Below are positions 8,303 to 19,734 of a stretch of 47,493 bases of DNA, in pieces. Both the position numbers and the translations under genes were made by a program. Each line of letters starts with the position of its first letter. Positions within the stretch are counted from its first letter, which is position 1. Under the pieces are notes generated by a model. That model ran no database searches and had not been told where the DNA came from. It saw only the letters and a list, made by a program, of their open reading frames with translations. Origin of the DNA: Bacteroidales bacterium (lineage in GTDB: Bacteria > Bacteroidota > Bacteroidia > Bacteroidales > DTU049); NCBI GenBank assembly GCA_033809015.1, contig JAPXMM010000001.1, forward strand, positions 1 to 47,493. The letters are read 5' to 3'.

Positions 8303-9019
8303 ATGAAAAGGATAGCAATTTTAATTATAGGACTTTTGTCAGTATTTTCATTAAAAATTTATGGACAAAATGATGAAGCATTAACAGAATTTAAATTTTT
8401 CAGAGCTGGTATGTATGGGACTACTGGAATTACTTGGATAAAACCTGACATGAAAGAATGGACAAATGAGGGTGTTCGTTTTGGTTATGGTTATGGTTTT
8501 ATGGCAGAGTTTGCTCTAGCACCTAATATTATTATTGCATCAGGCTTTGATGTGATGTATGGAAGTGGTAAATTGAAATTCGCTGATACACTGTTTATCT
8601 TTGATAGCTCTATAGCCAAACAGTCTGATATTAATTCTTTATACAAAATTCAATATTTACAAATTCCTATTACTATCAAAATGCGCACTAATGAAATTAA
8701 TTATTTCAGATATTATATGAGACTCGGTAGCTCATTAGGCTTCAGAATAGGAACTAAATATACTGAAGAAATTAGTGCCAAAGATGGTTCACTTGTTTCT
8801 ACACCTTATGATAATGAAAAAGCTATTGATCGTGTTCCTCTTTTCAGAGCTTCTTTCGATGTAGGTGGTGGTATAGAATATTCACTAGGTGGCACTACTG
8901 CATTATTAGCAGAAATATATTTTAATAATGGCCTCACTAATAGCTTAAAAGAATATAATAATTTTAAATATAATGCTAAAGTCAATTACTTAATGCTAAG
9001 AGTTGGCGTTTTATTTTAA
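8303..9019 (+). CDS. Small outer-membrane beta-barrel protein (OMP_b-brl/PorT-like)
   Basis: Signal peptide ending ...KIYGQ. Alternating hydrophobic beta-strand pattern. Aromatic C-terminus ...LMLRVGVLF. Confidence 0.5.
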   Translation: MKRIAILIIGLLSVFSLKIYGQNDEALTEFKFFRAGMYGTTGITWIKPDMKEWTNEGVRFGYGYGFMAEFALAPNIIIASGFDVMYGSGKLKFADTLFIFDSSIAKQSDINSLYKIQYLQIPITIKMRTNEINYFRYYMRLGSSLGFRIGTKYTEEISAKDGSLVSTPYDNEKAIDRVPLFRASFDVGGGIEYSLGGTTALLAEIYFNNGLTNSLKEYNNFKYNAKVNYLMLRVGVLF

Positions 9020-9230
9020 GATAAAGATAAAAAAATTTTCGCTTCTGCCTGCTTGAATATCGAAAAGCATCGACAGATGACTCAATTATTATTGCCCGAG
9101 AATCCTTCTGGAAAGAAGCTTTATTATCTAGAACTGAATTTGGATATAATAAAAATTAAAAAACTGCTGTTGACAAAAGCTATACGTAATGCGATTTTTG
9201 GTCCTAAACTGAAAGTGAATTAATATTAAC

Positions 9231-9405
9231 AAACATCATTTATAAATATTTGGCTAATTGGCTTTTAAATAAAAAAGTAGATTGGTTAAAAAAAACTTTT
9301 AGATTGAAAAAATTTATTTTTTGGTTAAAATAATTATTTTTATTTTTGACAAAATTTTTGAAAAAAATAACGGGGAAGCTGAAAACCGAATAGAGTAAGC
9401 AGAAA
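9231..9405 (+). repeat. Cassette-upstream module, copy A (promoter plus conserved leader)
   Basis: Paralogous to 10567-10737 and partly to 12614-12700. Contains 'aaacatcatttataaatatttggctaattggctttt...gtagattggttaaaaaaa...ataattatttttatttttgacaaaattt...aataacggggaagctgaaaa..tagagtaagcagaaa'. Confidence 0.85.
9341..9348 (+). promoter_or_regulatory. Bacteroidota-type -7 box (TAnnTTTG) inside module A
   Basis: 'tatttttg' lies 75 nt upstream of the ATG at 9423. The same box sits at the same module position in copy B. Confidence 0.5.
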
Positions 9406-9422
9406 TTTTAAATCTAAGTATT

Positions 9423-10430
9423 ATGAAGCCTAATATTTTTAGTATAGCCACAAAGGAGCTGTCGCAAGACGGTTTTTTTACTTGGCTGTTGCAATGGGGA
9501 GCACCTGAAAATGAGAAAATCGACAGTAAATTGTTTAAATGTGCTCAAAATTTTATTAAACTCCTTTTGTCAACTCACAACATCGAAATTAAAGAAATAA
9601 CTAAAGTTGATGCAGGACGTCAATGGGAAAATATAGACATTTGGGCTAAAATAAATAATGAATATCTGATTATTATTGAAGATAAAACATTTACAGTAGA
9701 ACATTCTAATCAACTTGAAAAGTATAAAAAAACTGCTGCTGATTGTTGCGAAAAAAATAATTACAAATTAATTTGTATATATTTAAAAACTGGAGTACAA
9801 TCAAAGTCGTCACTTGAAAAGATTAGAAACAAAGGATTTCAAATAATTGACAGGAAAGAATTGATTACATTTTTTGAAAAAAATGTAGTTGATAATGATA
9901 TTTATAATGAATTTGTTGAAAATCTTAATTCGCTTGAAAGTTCCATAAATTCATTTGAAACTCTACCAATAAAGAAATGGGATCATTATAGTTGGCTAGG
10001 TTTTTATCAATTTTTAGACACAAAACTTGAAGGAAATGATTGGCAATATGTTCCTAATCCCTCTGGTGGTTTTTTAGGCTTATGGTGGCACTTTTTAAAA
10101 TGGAAAGATTATGATGTTTATTTACAAATAGAGCAAGGTAATTTGTGCTTTAAAATTGGAGGAGTATCTAAAAACCATAGTTCTGTTAGAAATGAATGGT
10201 TTTCGGTTTTATCAAAGCAGATAAAATCTGAAAATCTAGTTGAAATAAAAAAACCTCCTAGATATGGTAAAGGATATTTTATGACTGTAGGTATTGTTCG
10301 TCGAGAGGATTGGCTTGGGCAAGATGATAGTATATTAGACAAAGAACAAGTTATTCGTAATTTGAAAAAATATGAAAACTTCTTATCAAATTGCGTAAAA
10401 CAATCAAACACAGAAAGTAACATCATTTAA
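9423..10430 (+). CDS. PD-(D/E)XK-superfamily nuclease family protein (defence-island type)
   Basis: N-terminal MKPNIFSIATKELSQDGFFTWLL. Candidate catalytic motif ENIDIW-x9-LIIIEDK (D...ExK). No other recognisable domain. Confidence 0.6.
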   Translation: MKPNIFSIATKELSQDGFFTWLLQWGAPENEKIDSKLFKCAQNFIKLLLSTHNIEIKEITKVDAGRQWENIDIWAKINNEYLIIIEDKTFTVEHSNQLEKYKKTAADCCEKNNYKLICIYLKTGVQSKSSLEKIRNKGFQIIDRKELITFFEKNVVDNDIYNEFVENLNSLESSINSFETLPIKKWDHYSWLGFYQFLDTKLEGNDWQYVPNPSGGFLGLWWHFLKWKDYDVYLQIEQGNLCFKIGGVSKNHSSVRNEWFSVLSKQIKSENLVEIKKPPRYGKGYFMTVGIVRREDWLGQDDSILDKEQVIRNLKKYENFLSNCVKQSNTESNII

Positions 10431-10520
10431 AAAAATTCGGTAATTAGTGCGATATCGGGCGATATAGCTTGTATCAAAAGTCGTCGCTACTTGATAGAAT
10501 ATTGCTTCGAAATATGCAAT

Positions 10521-10737
10521 AAAAATCTACAGCTGTCCTTTGTATTGCATTTAAAAACAAAAAATCAAACATTATTTATAAATATTTGGCTAATTGACTT
10601 TCAAATAAAATAGTAGATTGGTTAAAAAAATTTTTAGATTGGGGAAATTTATTTGATTGATAAAATAATTATTTTTATTTTTGACAAAATTTTAAAAAAA
10701 TAACGGGGAAGCTGAAAATAGATTAGAGTAAGCAGAA
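10521..10737 (+). repeat. Cassette-upstream module, copy B (longest copy)
   Basis: 10521-10640 is nearly identical to 12568-12680 (copy C). 10567-10737 is paralogous to 9231-9405 (copy A). Confidence 0.85.
10676..10683 (+). promoter_or_regulatory. Bacteroidota-type -7 box (TAnnTTTG) inside module B
   Basis: 'tatttttg' lies 80 nt upstream of the ATG at 10763. Confidence 0.5.
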
Positions 10738-10762
10738 AATAATTAATATAAAATTAAAAATT

Positions 10763-12466
10763 ATGCAATTTAGACAAGAAAACCTCTTAACATTTTTTGA
10801 TAGCACACAGAGATATTTTATAATCCCTGTTTACCAAAGAGCATATTCTTGGGAAAAAAGAGAATGGCAAACTTTTTTAGATGATTTAAAAGAACAAATT
10901 GAAGGGGATAATAACTATTTTTTTGGAAATATTTTACTCGAACAAATAAAAGAAGGAATAGAATATGAAATAATTGATGGACAACAGAGATTGCTAACTT
11001 TAACAATTTTTATGCGGGCATTGATCAATGTTTTTGAAAAAAGAAAAGAAAGTGGTGAAAAAATTGATGTAAATATTGAAAGTAAAAAATCTATTTATTT
11101 AAAACATAATGGCAACATAAAATTACGTCCCGTTGATTATGATAGAGCCTGTTTTGAAGATCTTATTATTAACAATATTGATTGTGAAACGAATAGCATT
11201 TCACAACAACGAATGAAAGAAGCAAAAATATTTTTTACTGAAGCTTTAAATAAGGAATCAACTGGAACACTTTTGAATATTTTGGATAAAATTGAAAAAA
11301 CAAAATTAACAACTATAGAATTAGTTGGCAAAAAAGATGCAGCTTTAATGTTTGAATTACAAAATAATAGGGGCAAAGATTTAACAAATATTGAAAAATT
11401 AAAATCCTATTTTATGTATCAAATGTATGTTTATAGTCCTGAGGGTGAAACAGAAACAAATATTGAATACGTTTCAAATATATTTAAGAATATTTATCTT
11501 ACTATTAAAGATTTAAAAGAATTAGAAGAAGATAGTATTTTAATTTATCACTGTAATGCTTACATCAATGGATATAACTACAGAACTATATCAGATATTA
11601 AAGATACTTTCAAAAATTCTAGAAAAGATAAGGTGGAATGGATAAAACATTTTGTAAATGAATTACATACAACATTCTCAAATTTTAAACGACTTGAAAA
11701 CTCAAAACTTTCTTACTATCAAGATTTAAAAAGACTTAAAATTCCCTCGTTTGTTTACCCTTTTATCGTGAAAGGATACAAATTTTTCGGTGATTCCCAA
11801 GAAAAATTAAATTCACTTTTTCACATTTTAGAAGTTTTAGTATTTAGATATCAATTAATAAATAGTAGAGCAGACATAGAAAGTCGTTTAAATGAGATAT
11901 TAGTAAATTTCAATGGAGATTTAAAAAAACTAAAAATTGATTTACAAAACAAATTAAACGAAACTTGGTATTGGAATGATGAAAGAATTAGTGAATATTT
12001 AAACGGTGAGATGCATGAAAATAAAGTTTTACATTATTTACTGTGGAAATATGAAGATTATATTCAATCGGAAGGATATAATATTAAAAAAATAAAGCTT
12101 TTAAATGAACAAATTGAGCATATTGCGCCACAAACACCAACAAATGGAGATCCAATTGCTTCAGGTTATGAAATTAATAAAAATGGTGATTATGGCAGCA
12201 AATTTAAGAATGAATATTTGAATTGTTTGGGAAATTTAATGTTAATATCAGGTTCTCATAATAGTTCCATTGGAAATAAGCCTTTTAAAGAAAAACTAAA
12301 ATCGTATATAAAAAATCCACTTTTAAATCAACAAGCAGAAATAAAAGATTTTATAAGTGGGAATTTGAAAAATCCATTGTGGGATAAAACAGCAATAGAT
12401 AAAAGACACGAAAAAATACTTGATTTTGCCGAAAAAAAATGGAGTTTTGATAACGTGATAATATAA
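10763..12466 (+). CDS. DUF262 (ParB-like NTPase) plus DUF1524 (His-Me finger) protein, GmrSD-like type IV restriction enzyme
   Basis: N-terminal IPVYQRAYSWEKREW and IIDGQQRLLTLTIF are DUF262 hallmarks. C-terminal EQIEHIAPQTP...LGNLMLISGSHNSSIGNKPF is the DUF1524/HNH-like motif. Confidence 0.8.
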   Translation: MQFRQENLLTFFDSTQRYFIIPVYQRAYSWEKREWQTFLDDLKEQIEGDNNYFFGNILLEQIKEGIEYEIIDGQQRLLTLTIFMRALINVFEKRKESGEKIDVNIESKKSIYLKHNGNIKLRPVDYDRACFEDLIINNIDCETNSISQQRMKEAKIFFTEALNKESTGTLLNILDKIEKTKLTTIELVGKKDAALMFELQNNRGKDLTNIEKLKSYFMYQMYVYSPEGETETNIEYVSNIFKNIYLTIKDLKELEEDSILIYHCNAYINGYNYRTISDIKDTFKNSRKDKVEWIKHFVNELHTTFSNFKRLENSKLSYYQDLKRLKIPSFVYPFIVKGYKFFGDSQEKLNSLFHILEVLVFRYQLINSRADIESRLNEILVNFNGDLKKLKIDLQNKLNETWYWNDERISEYLNGEMHENKVLHYLLWKYEDYIQSEGYNIKKIKLLNEQIEHIAPQTPTNGDPIASGYEINKNGDYGSKFKNEYLNCLGNLMLISGSHNSSIGNKPFKEKLKSYIKNPLLNQQAEIKDFISGNLKNPLWDKTAIDKRHEKILDFAEKKWSFDNVII

Positions 12467-12567
12467 AAGGTGGCTAACAAGCGGTATAGTTTATTGTCTA
12501 GATCATCCTGAAATCAACGGTAGCAGCTAGTTTCAAATTTCCTGCAGGTTTGCTTGGAATCTTAAAC

Positions 12568-12700
12568 AAAAATCTACTGCTGTCCGTTGTATGGCATTTA
12601 AAAACAAAAAATCAAACATTATTTATAAATATTTGGCTAATTGACTTTCAAATAAAGTAGATTGGTTTAAAAAAAACTTGTAATTAAAAAAATTTATATA
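12568..12700 (+). repeat. Cassette-upstream module, copy C (5' part only)
   Basis: 'aaaaatctactgctgtccgttgtatggcatttaaaaacaaaaaatcaaacattatttataaatatttggctaattgactttcaaataaagtagattggttt' matches copy B. It lacks the 'aacggggaagctg' leader segment. Confidence 0.8.
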
Positions 12701-12727
12701 TCTTCGTAAAGTAGAATTCTAAATATT

Positions 12728-13069
12728 ATGAGAAATTATCTATGTAAAAAATGTGCCACTCTCGTTAAAAGTGACAAAAAACCAATTATTTTTAATTGTC
12801 CTAGTGGAGGAAATCATCAATGGACTGATTTGGGTGAAGTTGGGACTACTAATTATCAATGTCAAAAATGTGCTACACACGTTAAAAGTCTCAAAAAACC
12901 AATTAGTTTTGATTGTCCTAGTGGGGGAAATCATCAGTGGACTGATTTAGGCGAAGTTGGGGATAATAATTATCAATGTCAAAAATGTGGGCTACTTCTA
13001 AAATCACAAAAAAAGCCAATTAGTTTTAATTGTCCTAGTGGAGGAAATCATCAATGGACACAGCTCTAA
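12728..13069 (+). CDS. Small protein made of three tandem 39-aa zinc-ribbon-like repeats (CxxC-x13-CPSGGNH)
   Basis: The repeat NY(L/Q)C(K/Q)KC..(V/L)KS.KKPI.F(N/D)CPSGGNHQWT(D/Q)LGEVG occurs at aa 3-41, 42-80 and 81-113. Nucleotide repeats are 12734-12850, 12851-12967 and 12968-13066. Confidence 0.6.
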   Translation: MRNYLCKKCATLVKSDKKPIIFNCPSGGNHQWTDLGEVGTTNYQCQKCATHVKSLKKPISFDCPSGGNHQWTDLGEVGDNNYQCQKCGLLLKSQKKPISFNCPSGGNHQWTQL

Positions 13070-13073
13070 TTAT

Positions 13074-13153
13074 ATGAAGTCAAACATTTTTTGTATAACC
13101 ACAAAAGAGCTGTCTCAAGATGGTAAAGAATAGACATCTCTGCTAAAATAATT
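13074..13153 (+). pseudogene. Decayed 5' fragment of a second PD-(D/E)XK nuclease gene (paralog of 9423-10430)
   Basis: atgaagtcaaacattttttgtataaccacaaaagagctgtctcaagatggt encodes MKSNIFCITTKELSQDG, versus MKPNIFSIATKELSQDG at 9423. A stop follows at 13131. Then 'aatagacatctctgctaaaataa' resembles 9631-9654 'atatagacatttgggctaaaataa', which implies internal deletion and truncation. Confidence 0.7.
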
Positions 13154-13198
13154 TACCCACAATAAACGTTATAGAAACAAAAATAAATTTAATAATAT

Positions 13199-14143
13199 AT
13201 GAATAATAAAAATGAAGGCTTGATAGAAACTAATTTTAGCTTTCCTAGCCAAATAAATTCACATAAAGGGAAAGTACGTGATATTTATGAATTTGATAAT
13301 CTAATATTAATGATCGTAACAGATAGAATATCTGCATTTGACGTTATATTACCACAACCAATCCCATACAAAGGACAAGTATTAAATCAAATTGCTGATT
13401 ATTTCCTTGATAGTACTAAAGATATTTTACCTAATTGGAAAATAATATGTCCTCATCCTATGTGTATGCTTGGTCATAAAGCCATTCCTTTTAAAGTAGA
13501 AATGGTCATCAGAGGATATCTAAGTGGTCATGCTTGGAGAGAATATAAAGATGGCAAACGCACTCTCTGCGGTCAACCATTACCAGATGGGTTAAAAGAA
13601 AATGATCCTTTCCCCCACCCTATCATTACTCCTACTACAAAAGCTATAGAAGGACATGATGAAGATATCGCACCAGAAGAAATTATCAGTGCTGGCTTGG
13701 TGTCTAAAGAAGATTATTCGAAACTCGAAAATTATACTTTGCAATTATTCGAAAGAGGTACACAATTAGCTAAACAAAAAGGCCTTATTCTAGTAGATAC
13801 AAAATACGAATTTGGAAAATTAAATGAGGAAATTATTCTCATTGATGAAATACACACTCCTGACTCTTCCAGATATTTCTATGCTGAGGGTTATGAAGAA
13901 AGACAAAAACTAGGACAACCACAAAAACAATTATCTAAAGAATTTGTTCGTGAATGGCTTATGGATCAAGGATTCTCTGGGCAAGATAATCAAAAAGTTC
14001 CTATTATGCCACCAGAGATTATTCACGAAGTTTCTCATAGATATATAGAACTATACGAAATGCTGACAGGTAAAGTCTTTCAACCTATTAATTATAATCA
14101 TCTGGAAGAAGAAATGCAAAAAAATATCTTGAAATATTTATAA
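13199..14143 (+). CDS. purC: Phosphoribosylaminoimidazole-succinocarboxamide (SAICAR) synthase
   Basis: GKVRDIYEF...[23 protein letters not shown] and [11 protein letters not shown]. Length matches the long PurC type. Confidence 0.9.
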
Positions 14144-17282: not shown

Positions 17283-17603
17283 AATTATAGTGAATTATTT
17301 AAAGACACATTGAATAAAAATTTTGGTTCTATAACGTTTACTATGAGTAAAGATTAAAAATGATTTATTTTATAAAAGATTTGATAATATTTGTTAATAA
17401 AAACCACTAAGTTCTCAAAATAATCACAAAGGACACAGTGAAGGATAGAATTAACGCAATAACAATATCAAATAACACTTTGTGAACTTTGTGTAATAAC
17501 TTTATGCTCTTTGTGTTAAAAAAAATATCTAAATATTAAAGATATTTATTTTTATGTAATAATCTTAAATTTTATTACCTATTCGAGACGTTAAAAAACC
17601 AAA

Positions 17604-18656
17604 TTATAAACTCATTTTTTGCTTATTAAGTTCTATAAATTCATAATCTGGTTTAGAAACAAAAATATCTTGTTTAATTGTAGATAATTTATTTAAGGTA
17701 GCTTTTATGGCAATTTCAGAAATATCTATTCCAATCCAGGTTCTATTATTTAATTGTGCAGATTTTAATGTTGTACCGGATCCACAAAAGCAATCTAAAA
17801 CAATACTATTTTCATTAGAAGAAGTTTTAATAATTAAATCTAATAAATCTTGATTTTTTTCTGTTGGATAAGTAGGATATTGAGGATCTTTGAATTCCCA
17901 AATATCTTGCATTCTTTTGCCAATATTTTCATCAGCATAAATAATTTTTCTTGGATTTCCAGTAGAAGACCATTCTATTAAACCTTGATTATCCCATTGT
18001 TCTAAAGTATCAACATCTACTCTCCAGTGACGCCCCTTTGGAGGTAATAATCCCTTAAAAGGCATATTAGTTTTTCCATTAACGGTTTCACCTGGTGCGT
18101 GAATAGGCACAGTAGTATAACGGCGACCTTGTTTATTAATTTTAGGGAATAATTTTTCAATATCTTTTTGTGAATATTTCACAATCGGTTCATTCCATAT
18201 AGGGTTTGCTGTTTTAGTATAAAATAAAATCATATCTTTGATATTTCCATAACCTATTTTATTAAAATTTTTAGGATTACATTTAATACGTGTAATATCA
18301 TTTCTAAAATTTTCGATGCCAAAAATTTCGTCCATCATAACCTTAACATAATGCCCAATTTTGTAATCTATATGCAAATAAATAGAACCTTTGTCTGACA
18401 ATAATTCATATAATAAAATTATCCTATCTTTTAAAAATTTAATGTAATCATCCCCTTTTATATTGTCTGTATATGCTACAGTCCCCTTTTTAGAATTACT
18501 TATAGTAGATGCACGATCATCTGTTATTGTGAAATTATTACCAGTAGCAAAAGGTGGATCTATGTATATTAGATCTATTTTCCCTTTTAATTGTCTATCA
18601 TTTATAAGGTATTCTAATGCAACAAGATTTTCACCATGTATTAATAAACTTTTCAT
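17604..18656 (-). CDS. Beta-class DNA methyltransferase (N6-adenine or N4-cytosine) of a type II R-M pair
   Basis: Motif IV IYIDPPFATG is near the N-terminus and motif I VLDCFCGSGTT near the C-terminus, which is the beta-class order. Confidence 0.85.
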   Translation of the reverse strand: MKSLLIHGENLVALEYLINDRQLKGKIDLIYIDPPFATGNNFTITDDRASTISNSKKGTVAYTDNIKGDDYIKFLKDRIILLYELLSDKGSIYLHIDYKIGHYVKVMMDEIFGIENFRNDITRIKCNPKNFNKIGYGNIKDMILFYTKTANPIWNEPIVKYSQKDIEKLFPKINKQGRRYTTVPIHAPGETVNGKTNMPFKGLLPPKGRHWRVDVDTLEQWDNQGLIEWSSTGNPRKIIYADENIGKRMQDIWEFKDPQYPTYPTEKNQDLLDLIIKTSSNENSIVLDCFCGSGTTLKSAQLNNRTWIGIDISEIAIKATLNKLSTIKQDIFVSKPDYEFIELNKQKMSL

Positions 18657-18659
18657 TTT

Positions 18660-19442
18660 CTATATTTGATATAAGAATTCTCTTAAAACTAATGTACTCA
18701 TTATATTATGATTTTTATATTTACCTGTTATCTCTTTATACATTTTATTATTTCCTGGAATATATAAAACCCCATCTAATATGGCAACTTTTATAGTTTT
18801 TACATTTTTTAGTTTGAATATATTTAAGGCCTCATTAAATTGTGCATTTTGATGACCTCCAAAATCTGTTAAAAATTTAGTTTCACCGATAATATATTTA
18901 TTATTAAAACGTCCAATAAAATCCAGCCCTTTATCATGATTATAATTTAATTCGTCTTTTGCAAATTGTAATAAAATTTGATCGCTTCCCTTTAAAATGG
19001 CATCATTTTTAGTAGAAATAAAATTTTCTAAATTTAAAGGTTCGATACCTAATGATTTTTGGTTGATCCAGTTTTTAAACATTGGACCTATTTGCCTATT
19101 AGTTTCTTTAGGTTCACTACATCTTTCATATAAATTATCAAGACCTATTTCATATATTCGTCCACATATACGATTTACTGTTTTAGGATTTCTTTCTATT
19201 GCAGATGGGTCTCTTTTGAGATATGCGATATAACTATCTTTTATGGGAAATAGTGGCAGTTTTAATGTTTCTTTTATTAAAAGTTTATTATCCTTTTTAT
19301 TAAAAGCACTTTCTATATTATCCCAGAGTCGCTGATCAATTTCTCTTATTCCCTCTGGTATAGTAGGATAAACCTTAAATAAATCATCAAGATATGATCT
19401 TTGATTAGCATATTCTATACTTAATTCCAACCAATGATTCAT
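18660..19442 (-). CDS. Putative type II restriction endonuclease (PD-(D/E)XK), cognate to the adjacent methyltransferase
   Basis: Stops 3 nt before the methyltransferase start on the same strand. Candidate catalytic motif GLDFIGRFNNKYIIGETKF (D-x12-ExK). No named family recognised. Start taken at MNHWLEL (19442); the ORF-track start at 19475 is also possible. Confidence 0.55.
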   Translation of the reverse strand: MNHWLELSIEYANQRSYLDDLFKVYPTIPEGIREIDQRLWDNIESAFNKKDNKLLIKETLKLPLFPIKDSYIAYLKRDPSAIERNPKTVNRICGRIYEIGLDNLYERCSEPKETNRQIGPMFKNWINQKSLGIEPLNLENFISTKNDAILKGSDQILLQFAKDELNYNHDKGLDFIGRFNNKYIIGETKFLTDFGGHQNAQFNEALNIFKLKNVKTIKVAILDGVLYIPGNNKMYKEITGKYKNHNIMSTLVLREFLYQI

Positions 19443-19734
19443 TATTTTTTTACAAATATATAAAAAATTTACCATTTAGATAAGTAGCAAAATTTAATGT
19501 CTAATTTGCAGATTCTCGAATGATTAGACAGATTTATAAAGTCTATAATGATTATCTTGTTTTTATACTTTATCAAAAATTTTTTTTGATAAATTGTTGG
19601 TGCAATTCATGAATTGTCTCAATGAATTACTCCATATAAAAAACAATAGTAGAAGCCATATTACCTTACGCCTAATCATCATAATATTTATAGATCAGAC
19701 AAAAAAGTTATCAAACTTATTAAACATCATTTAC

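Follow-up and report, generated by a model that had tools for sequence, protein, structure and literature searches.

A repeat protein of predicted zinc ribbons encoded beside purC in a Bacteroidales genome belongs to a family often found directly upstream of DNA-targeting defence enzymes

Background

The window analysed here is a whole stretch of 47,493 nucleotides (nt) from a Bacteroidales bacterium (assembly GCA_033809015.1, contig JAPXMM010000001.1, positions 1 to 47,493). At 12728-13069 on its forward strand a gene, called the Zn gene below, encodes a protein of 113 amino acids (aa) built of three similar units, closely followed by what appears to be the remnant of a PD-(D/E)XK nuclease gene. 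What does such a protein do, and does it belong with the nuclease? An initial annotation, made from the sequence and its open reading frames (ORFs), had suggested a sensor, inhibitor or antitoxin-like partner of the nuclease. Comparison with relatives in other genomes found that cytoplasmic members of the family typically open a two-gene module whose other gene encodes a DNA-targeting defence enzyme. We tentatively favour, with a probability of about 0.4, the reading that the Zn protein would be a multivalent DNA-binding accessory of nuclease cassettes. The features on which the argument turns are:

12728..13069, forward strand: gene for the 113-aa three-unit zinc-ribbon protein (ORF listing, ATG start)
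12734..12850, forward strand: repeat unit 1, residues 3-41, ligands C6, C9, C24 and H30 (repeat search and Tandem Repeats Finder)
12851..12967, forward strand: repeat unit 2, residues 42-80, ligands C45, C48, C63 and H69; the extra unit, without counterpart in the two-unit alleles of close relatives
12968..13066, forward strand: repeat unit 3, residues 81-113, ligands C84, C87, C102 and H108; of the family's last-unit type (CGLL.KS)
13074..13133, forward strand: remnant of a PDDEXK_4 partner, 19 codons and a stop, with 51 nt 86% identical to 9423-9473

The gene and its three units

The ORF consists almost wholly of three head-to-tail units of 117 nt. Tandem Repeats Finder reported 12734-13059 with a period of 117, 2.8 copies, 85% matches and a score of 460, and a separate repeat search returned the same three units (12734-12850, 12851-12967 and 12968-13084). 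Both searches thus agree with the three tandem 39-aa units described initially, but calling them near-identical was generous: units 1 and 2 share 86% of their nucleotides and 31 of 39 aa, and unit 3 is 78% identical to units 1 and 2 in nucleotides and shares 25-26 of 33 aa with them. Every unit follows the pattern Y-x-C-x2-C-x9-P-x4-C-x5-H-x-W and then an LG-x-x-G linker. The Cys-Cys-Cys-His set assigned to each unit by the initial annotation is conserved. In an alignment of 52 sequences the Cys of units 2 and 3, P58, P97, H69 and W71 are invariant and H108 and W110 are at least 90% conserved, and in a two-unit alignment all eight ligands are invariant, with two knuckles, C-x2-C and C-x5-H, in every unit; a zinc-ribbon-type unit is predicted.

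Unitigs from four independent DNA metagenomes (wastewater, anaerobic digester and activated sludge) span the three-unit form; X1 (12796-13053) and X2 (12790-13053) run without mismatch from the end of unit 1 into unit 3. Locus L017 holds an identical gene, and locus L018, a Rikenellaceae metagenome-assembled genome, holds a three-unit gene that is 96% identical. Metatranscriptome contigs from four runs cover the ORF (for example X28, 12796-13059, depth 65, and X32, 12796-13054, depth 101) at depths equal to or above those of the flanking GmrSD gene and purC, with DNA carry-over possible. We conclude that the ORF is a genuine gene and that its three-unit form is no assembly artefact. L017 itself is the 4-kb contig JAKPCM010000176.1, from a bin labelled Caldisericota; it is probably mis-binned, since the other close relatives are Bacteroidales or Rikenellaceae.

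A spurious ORF inside a DNA tandem repeat would have in its favour that the region is such a repeat, and nothing else. The ligand pattern is invariant across phyla in spite of diverged synonymous sites, AlphaFold2 predicts the fold with very high confidence, the gene is covered by RNA-derived contigs, and the module occurs in fusion proteins. A word-indexed search found 57 relatives, and an exhaustive HMMER search, covering 1.84 billion representatives, gave 547 clusters at E ≤ 1e-3 (330 at E ≤ 1e-10). This family-wide conservation refutes the spurious-ORF reading, to which we assign practically no probability; where the initial annotation had considered that conservation outside this genome and expression might both be lacking, the 547 clusters and the RNA-derived contigs were found. 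The exact window protein is absent from a collection of 15 billion sequences. A sigma-70 promoter scan was uninformative (3 sites against 4.3 expected), and Rfam gave no RNA family at threshold in the ORF, with a sub-threshold match to TEG147 on the minus strand.

Downstream partners of the Zn gene

The stub ORF opens at ATG 13074, 4 nt past the stop codon of the Zn gene, and encodes the peptide MKSNIFCITTKELSQDGKE before its own stop codon. Its likeness to the opening codons of intact PDDEXK_4 at 9423 bears out the remnant nuclease gene noticed initially at this distance. A second PDDEXK_4 fragment lies at 13120-13151, where 32 nt match 9623-9654 (codons 67-77 of the intact gene), and the stub is conserved in L001, L002, L004 and L017-L019. 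The pairing proposed in the initial annotation with the MK.NIF..TKELSQD family of PD-(D/E)XK nucleases was found in other genomes: a nuclease of this family begins 0-5 nt after the Zn stop codon and is intact in L008/9, L051, L052, L056 and L098, and a frameshifted PDDEXK_4 copy follows at the same spacing in L039. Because intact Zn-then-PDDEXK_4 pairs exist in at least six other sources, the stub in the window is, on sequence comparison, the decayed PDDEXK_4 partner of the Zn gene. L051 and L056 are Hymenobacter loci.

The wider neighbourhood was taken from 80 genome loci, found with two peptide patterns in a scan of one genome per species; 77 de-duplicated loci have a called downstream gene. 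At 30 of these 77 the next gene lies on the same strand within 60 nt or overlaps, and it is of the following kinds:

GmrSD: 7 loci
PDDEXK_4: 4 loci
cl2, unannotated, 230-300 aa: 4 loci
DEDDh exonuclease: 3 loci
cl3, unannotated, about 240 aa: 2 loci
Mrr: 1 locus
protein weakly resembling uracil-DNA glycosylase (UDG): 1 locus
other genes: 8 loci

The PD-(D/E)XK nuclease is therefore a real partner, but one of several interchangeable ones, with GmrSD, Mrr and possibly UDG-like proteins among the others; intact pairs with GmrSD include L020, L024 and L060. Near-identical Zn proteins have different partners (PDDEXK_4 in L052, cl2 in L057/58), and therefore partner swapping appears from these sequences to outpace the evolution of the Zn gene itself.

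The cl2 and cl3 proteins carry the motifs GQE.N / YHPNYL and VGESHY / H.S. They gave no match in Pfam, NCBIfam or PADLOC, a weak match to family-4 UDG (E 0.06), and a weak profile match to each other (hhalign probability 59%). DNA glycosylases are a known kind of anti-phage defence (PMC11078745), and cl2 and cl3 may be glycosylase-type defence proteins, an assignment to be read as a lead only. Neighbours of this type were seen at L042 6210-7118, L057 2657-3352, L064 6210-6935 and L001 5419-6138, and in relatives.

Tight upstream coupling raises the possibility, put forward in the initial annotation, that the Zn protein is an inhibitor or antitoxin-like partner, which would hold the bound nuclease inactive until the cell is infected. 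Type II toxin-antitoxin pairs typically show such a coupled order, here with overlaps of -4, -16 and -40 nt, and one small domain pairs with many unrelated effectors, as in the Panacea system. There the small antitoxin domain PanA (DUF4065) stands beside many unrelated effector families in two-gene modules (PMC8832971), the nearest analogy for such an arrangement; the folds are unrelated, neutralisation has been shown for Panacea, and the Zn family is also solitary and exported. Against inhibition, near-identical tip types (the variable residues described below) go with different partners, the partner families commonly occur alone, and exported forms exist. Measured as a type II antitoxin, the family is tightly coupled at the 30 loci, yet solitary intact copies persist and outlast the partner (in the window and L001-L004, at 95-98% nucleotide identity), and the partners are restriction-type enzymes. 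Weighing the genomic contexts, we think it rather improbable that inhibition is the role of the Zn protein.

Membrane-tethered and exported members

The exhaustive search also found fusion proteins of two layouts: signal peptide, SH3_3, transmembrane segment, linker and two Zn units; and two Zn units, transmembrane segment and SH3_3. By the positive-inside rule, both layouts are predicted to have cytoplasmic Zn units, with the SH3 domain, which binds peptidoglycan, on the outer side of the membrane. In L098 the fusion gene is followed after 3 nt by PDDEXK_4, and in L099/100 by a cl2 protein. Membrane proteins combining SH3_3 and Zn units were seen at L098 2026-2703 and in P0168, P0201-P0203, P0188, P0100, P0153 and P0200. 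A prophage-like region with a terminase gene (L016, equal to L053, with a partial copy in L041) carries an exported three-unit Zn gene that overlaps an exported Endonuclease_NS gene.

Variable residues matched across units

Unit positions 15, 17, 18, 19 and 26 flank the second knuckle (P-x4-C-x5-H) and are called the tip here. They are 15-33% identical between proteins and 63-91% identical between the repeats of one protein, and this matching was seen in all the listed two-, three- and six-unit proteins. Across 101 adjacent unit pairs the tip positions match in 394 of 505 comparisons. Different codons encode 45% of the matches; in 39 matches the codons are at least two nucleotides apart. Identical codons have a frequency of 0.55 at the tips against a random expectation of 0.40, and 0.60 against 0.49 at other matched positions. 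With a codon excess at the tips no larger than at those other positions, recent gene conversion was rejected as the sole cause of the matching, and would explain only a minority of it.

In the window lineage conversion is active, the C-halves of the units being 92-96% identical in nucleotides. Outside that lineage selection must, to judge from the codons, keep the tips of all units alike, recent conversion accounting for a minority of the matches only. This rule would be explained by a ligand that is repeated or symmetric; packing of unit against unit would not explain it, because it holds whether a protein has two, three or six units. Zn genes with different partners share tip types, so the tip does not track the partner.

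A possible DNA-binding accessory of nucleases

Most members have a net charge of +5 to +10, and the proteins are uniformly basic, with a median computed pI of 9.2. From this positive charge, the multivalent identical tips and the nuclease contexts inside and outside the cell we infer a repeated polyanionic ligand, most likely DNA. As a DNA-binding accessory, the protein would present an identical variable tip around the second zinc knuckle of every unit, the tips together would bind the repeated ligand multivalently, and the Zn protein would recruit the neighbouring nuclease or bind DNA for it. In the window the original PDDEXK_4 partner would then have decayed to the stub and the Zn gene survived intact.

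Several observations weigh against this reading. A tight downstream partner is lacking at 47 of the 77 loci; the commonest variant, P0049 (more than 130 contigs, in a Lachnospiraceae mobile element), stands alone beside a divergent helix-turn-helix (HTH) gene; and the partner enzymes, which PADLOC treats as single-gene candidates, are often seen with no Zn gene, as at 9423. A Sec-type signal peptide is present in 19 of 73 proteins, mostly three- and six-unit forms of rumen Bacteroidales, and these exported forms lie in housekeeping neighbourhoods (HtpG, Peptidase_M28, QueG) and not in defence islands, so that the module is not restricted to defence or to the cytoplasm. No DNA-binding family matches the Zn protein. 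In addition, the two-pattern search makes the locus sample a biased one, and the gene calls in the loci came from a simple ORF heuristic. Among the neighbours of exported forms, HtpG was seen in L023, L026 and L032, and Peptidase_M28 in L030-L033, L037 and L063.

These contexts would suit a general-purpose module for binding polyanions, envelope or metal, with no functional tie to nucleases, that rides in variable, gene-dense regions. More than half of the loci have no nuclease neighbour, exported multi-unit forms occupy housekeeping contexts, other members are fused to peptidoglycan-binding SH3_3, and 2.9 million IMG/VR viral contigs yielded one family locus. However, the same few partner families stand directly downstream across distant taxa, for free and membrane-tethered forms, and gaps of 0-5 nt indicate co-translation. 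We regard a general module of this kind as possible but doubtful. A phage anti-defence protein was also considered and rejected on the single relative among the IMG/VR contigs and on PHROGs matches of unknown function only.

A more specific proposal is that members of the family are multivalent readers that detect phage DNA with dense modification and serve modification-dependent effectors. The pocket of each unit would be formed by positions 15, 17-19 and 26, and avidity would arise only on DNA modified at all occurrences of a base; these pockets would shift between lineages with the modifications of phages, in all units together; the modified DNA would be passed to the downstream effector (GmrSD, Mrr, PDDEXK_4 or a UDG-like glycosylase); and the membrane-tethered forms would act at the site of DNA entry. 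We offer this as a speculative and improbable refinement.

Predicted structure and relation to known families

AlphaFold2 with the family alignment predicted the three-unit protein with a mean local confidence (pLDDT) of 96.8 and a predicted template-modelling score (pTM) of 0.87, and a two-unit member with 95.6 and 0.80. The predicted fold is all-beta, and a 14-residue strand element (32-45, a long hairpin) bridges consecutive units. Since the pTM is so high, the units are predicted to hold a fixed arrangement as one rigid body, and the model contradicts the beads-on-a-string arrangement imagined initially. Foldseek against the PDB and viral models gave no global match (E > 1, TM ≤ 0.37). Its partial matches cover single units only (33-45 residues, 2-4 A root-mean-square deviation, every E > 1) and are rubredoxin-type ribbons: desulforedoxin, Rpb12, MCM zinc domains and FmdB-like phage proteins. 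The beta hairpins of the predicted units have pLDDT > 90. On these models the unit would belong to the zinc-ribbon fold class, with zinc binding predicted.

The initial annotation recognised no named family, and the searches agree: Pfam, NCBIfam, PADLOC and PHROGs gave generic CxxC-knuckle matches, all below cut-off except a partial one to DUF723 (PF05265). That match sums to 27.9 bits (cut-off 20.9) and is made up of two partial stretches, which run across the borders between units and cover profile positions 27-60 of 60, and DUF723 appears in no relative's precomputed Pfam list. PADLOC-DB 2.0 holds no family for the window protein or P0049; neighbours of Zn genes match its PDC-S26, HEC-06, PDC-S02 and PDC-S48. 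Matches in PHROGs were of unknown function. A literature search on tandem zinc-ribbon defence proteins, PDDEXK_4 and PDC-S26 found nothing relevant. The family and its pairing with nucleases are thus undescribed in the curated families, defence catalogue and literature searched.

Other assignments were tried and rejected. A Ricin-B/CBM13 (QxW)3 beta-trefoil, suggested by a phmmer match to 1knl (E = 0.1), was discarded because Foldseek finds no trefoil (FGF18, TM 0.13-0.17) and most members have two units. Relatives are nameless or automatically labelled 'RPC12/RpoP' (a JGI name); RpoP is an archaeal and eukaryotic subunit with a single ribbon. Against the RpoP equivalog models P0049 scores 20.6 bits with a cut-off of 63 and the window protein has no match. 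Membership of Zn_ribbon_8 or of the TIGR02605 FmdB family fails at 26.2 against 34.4 bits (PF09723) and 20.3 against 31.3 (TIGR02605). The FmdB/Zn_ribbon_8 proteins (CxxC_CxxC_SSSS) are nevertheless the best generic sequence matches and, likewise, small stand-alone bacterial zinc-ribbon proteins, but they have one ribbon with a CxxC second knuckle, whereas the Zn family has 2, 3 or 6 units with C-x5-H.

Two further comparisons concern function. Proteins of the Lar family are very small, Cys-rich zinc-ribbon proteins connected with restriction; Lar is prophage-borne and counteracts it. Its matches are weak and sub-threshold, to a six-unit relative only (E 0.003), and the Zn family, in contrast, is nearly absent from viral contigs and adjoins the host's own nucleases. 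The nearest functional analogy for tandem ribbons is the C-terminus of topoisomerase I, where several zinc-ribbon units in a row bind single-stranded DNA (PMC4678816). There is no sequence match (zf-C4_Topoisom is not among the Pfam matches at E ≤ 1), and the Zn protein differs in being Cys3-His with a C-x5-H second knuckle, free-standing, and predicted to have rigidly joined units.

Distribution and history of unit number

The majority of the 80 loci are in Bacteroidota (Bacteroidales, Flavobacteriia, Chitinophagia, Hymenobacter and Algoriphagus), and the remainder in Verrucomicrobiota, Lentisphaerae, Lachnospiraceae, Spirochaetes and further phyla. Two units were found in 60 genes, three in 24 and six in two, the rest being fragments; most typical is a two-unit protein of 74 aa that lacks a signal peptide. 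Throughout the family, signatures in the N-half tell first units from last units (T at unit position 8; D versus K at position 31), and unit 1 of the window is of the first-unit type, with T at position 8. Since these signatures are kept apart across the family, the two-unit duplication is, as far as sequences tell, ancient and family-wide.

The closest relatives, L001-L004 (flanks about 95% identical), have a two-unit allele. Removal of 117 nt, starting between 12850 and 12873, turns the window gene into the L001 allele with 5 nt differences. The middle unit is chimeric: it opens with 22 nt identical to those that begin unit 3, and the remainder is unit-1-like and about 15% divergent from unit 1, a pattern that unequal crossing-over would produce. 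L018 and L019/L021 share this middle unit, and for this reason the three-unit allele is taken to be as old as the species group of the window, while the two-unit alleles may be deletions. In some two-unit records short reads may have collapsed the repeat. The recent or homogenised duplication suggested initially therefore holds in part: the middle unit alone is lineage-specific, but at about 15% from unit 1 it is not fresh, and the two-unit plan is ancient.

The cassette hotspot beside purC

Between an outer-membrane beta-barrel gene (8303-9019) and purC (13199-14143) the window carries, in order, PDDEXK_4, GmrSD, the Zn gene and the PDDEXK_4 stub. The features besides the Zn gene and stub are:

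9423..10430, forward strand: intact PDDEXK_4 nuclease cassette, PADLOC PDC-S26-like (Pfam PF14281 E 7.6e-10; PADLOC PDC-S26 E 1.2e-11)
10763..12466, forward strand: GmrSD-type cassette (type IV restriction, HEC-06-like), directly upstream of the Zn gene (Pfam and PADLOC: GmrSD_N E 2.5e-32, GmrSD_C E 9.5e-20, HEC-06 E 4.5e-48)
12558..12697, forward strand: 5' part of the intergenic cassette module, of which copies also precede PDDEXK_4 (9175-9317) and GmrSD (10511-10653)
12677..12727, forward strand: gene-specific leader and right-hand boundary of the variable region, where homology with the two-unit alleles of L001-L004 begins

In the comparison of window 9020-13198 with L001 3160-6620 and with L003, blastn aligned window 12677-12942 with L001 6212-6484. 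L001, with flanks 95% identical, has an N6/N4 methyltransferase, a 262-aa protein (possibly BsaWI-like), a 239-aa protein, a two-unit Zn gene and the stub known from the window; in L003 the Zn gene is accompanied by PDDEXK_4 and a 241-aa protein. Because the window, L001 and L003 differ in the cassettes to the left of the Zn gene, the stretch is a hotspot whose cassettes vary between strains, and the Zn gene with its stub forms the right end that stays constant.

An intergenic module of about 190 nt precedes each cassette (9175-9405, 10511-10738 and, as its 5' part, 12558-12697 in the window; about 3510-3649 in L001 and about 1178-1417 in L003). It contains TAGATTG-N14-TAGATTG, probably carries a promoter and probably supplies homology for cassette exchange. 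The initial annotation gave the Zn gene its own copy: the 5' part is present, 92% identical to 10511-10613, but the 3' part resembling the DUF805b RNA motif is lacking. That motif (RF02914) was found by Rfam at 9369-9401 on the forward strand, within the 3' portion of the module copy that precedes intact PDDEXK_4 (39.4 bits against a gathering threshold of 35.6); the GmrSD copy (10672-10738) is 82% similar in this region without an Rfam report.

On another reading the Zn protein would control the cassette downstream of it at the level of transcription or translation, setting nuclease expression, with the SH3 membrane fusions as ToxR-like sensors. The Zn gene precedes the effector gene in the same orientation and often overlaps or directly adjoins it, the protein is basic, both fusion topologies put the repeats in the cytoplasm, and the paired TAGATTG lies upstream of cassettes. 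C proteins of restriction-modification systems and BrxR/WYL-type regulators precede restriction or defence genes and are HTH or WYL proteins with defined operators. The Zn gene resembles theirs in being small, in directly preceding a nuclease gene, often with an overlap, and in its setting of mobile defence cassettes. Unlike them, it lacks operator-like repeats upstream: in the 150 nt before 56 family genes direct repeats were not enriched (longest 6.79 nt against 6.26 nt in shuffled sequence, by a crude search). Moreover, an exported protein cannot act as a transcription factor, type IV enzymes have no need of delayed expression, and no similarity to a known DNA-binding regulator was found. 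On balance control of expression seems an unlikely role, if a conceivable one.

Two other features of the region were seen. A 30-nt element at 13147-13176 (forward strand), about 23 nt upstream of purC, has a partial copy at 17327-17345 (reverse strand); a related copy is found upstream of metG and another left of the first L001 module. In metagenome and metatranscriptome unitigs it shows a 10- to 200-fold excess of depth and many different flanks, and it looks like a shared Bacteroidales promoter or leader. Further downstream, a 350-aa ORF at 17604-18656 (reverse strand) has an IDPPF motif typical of DNA methyltransferases and adjoins a 271-aa ORF at 18660-19475; the two may form a separate restriction-modification pair.

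Implications

The locus shows a hotspot adjacent to purC that is rebuilt between strains at 95% nucleotide identity. Annotation pipelines miss the Zn family or mislabel it as an RNA polymerase subunit. The identity of otherwise variable residues within one protein is unusual, and gives a direct experimental handle on the ligand of the module. If the link to nucleases is functional, the PADLOC single-gene candidates PDC-S26/PDDEXK_4, GmrSD/HEC-06 and PDC-S02/Mrr would have, at least in Bacteroidota, an unrecognised and interchangeable small partner.

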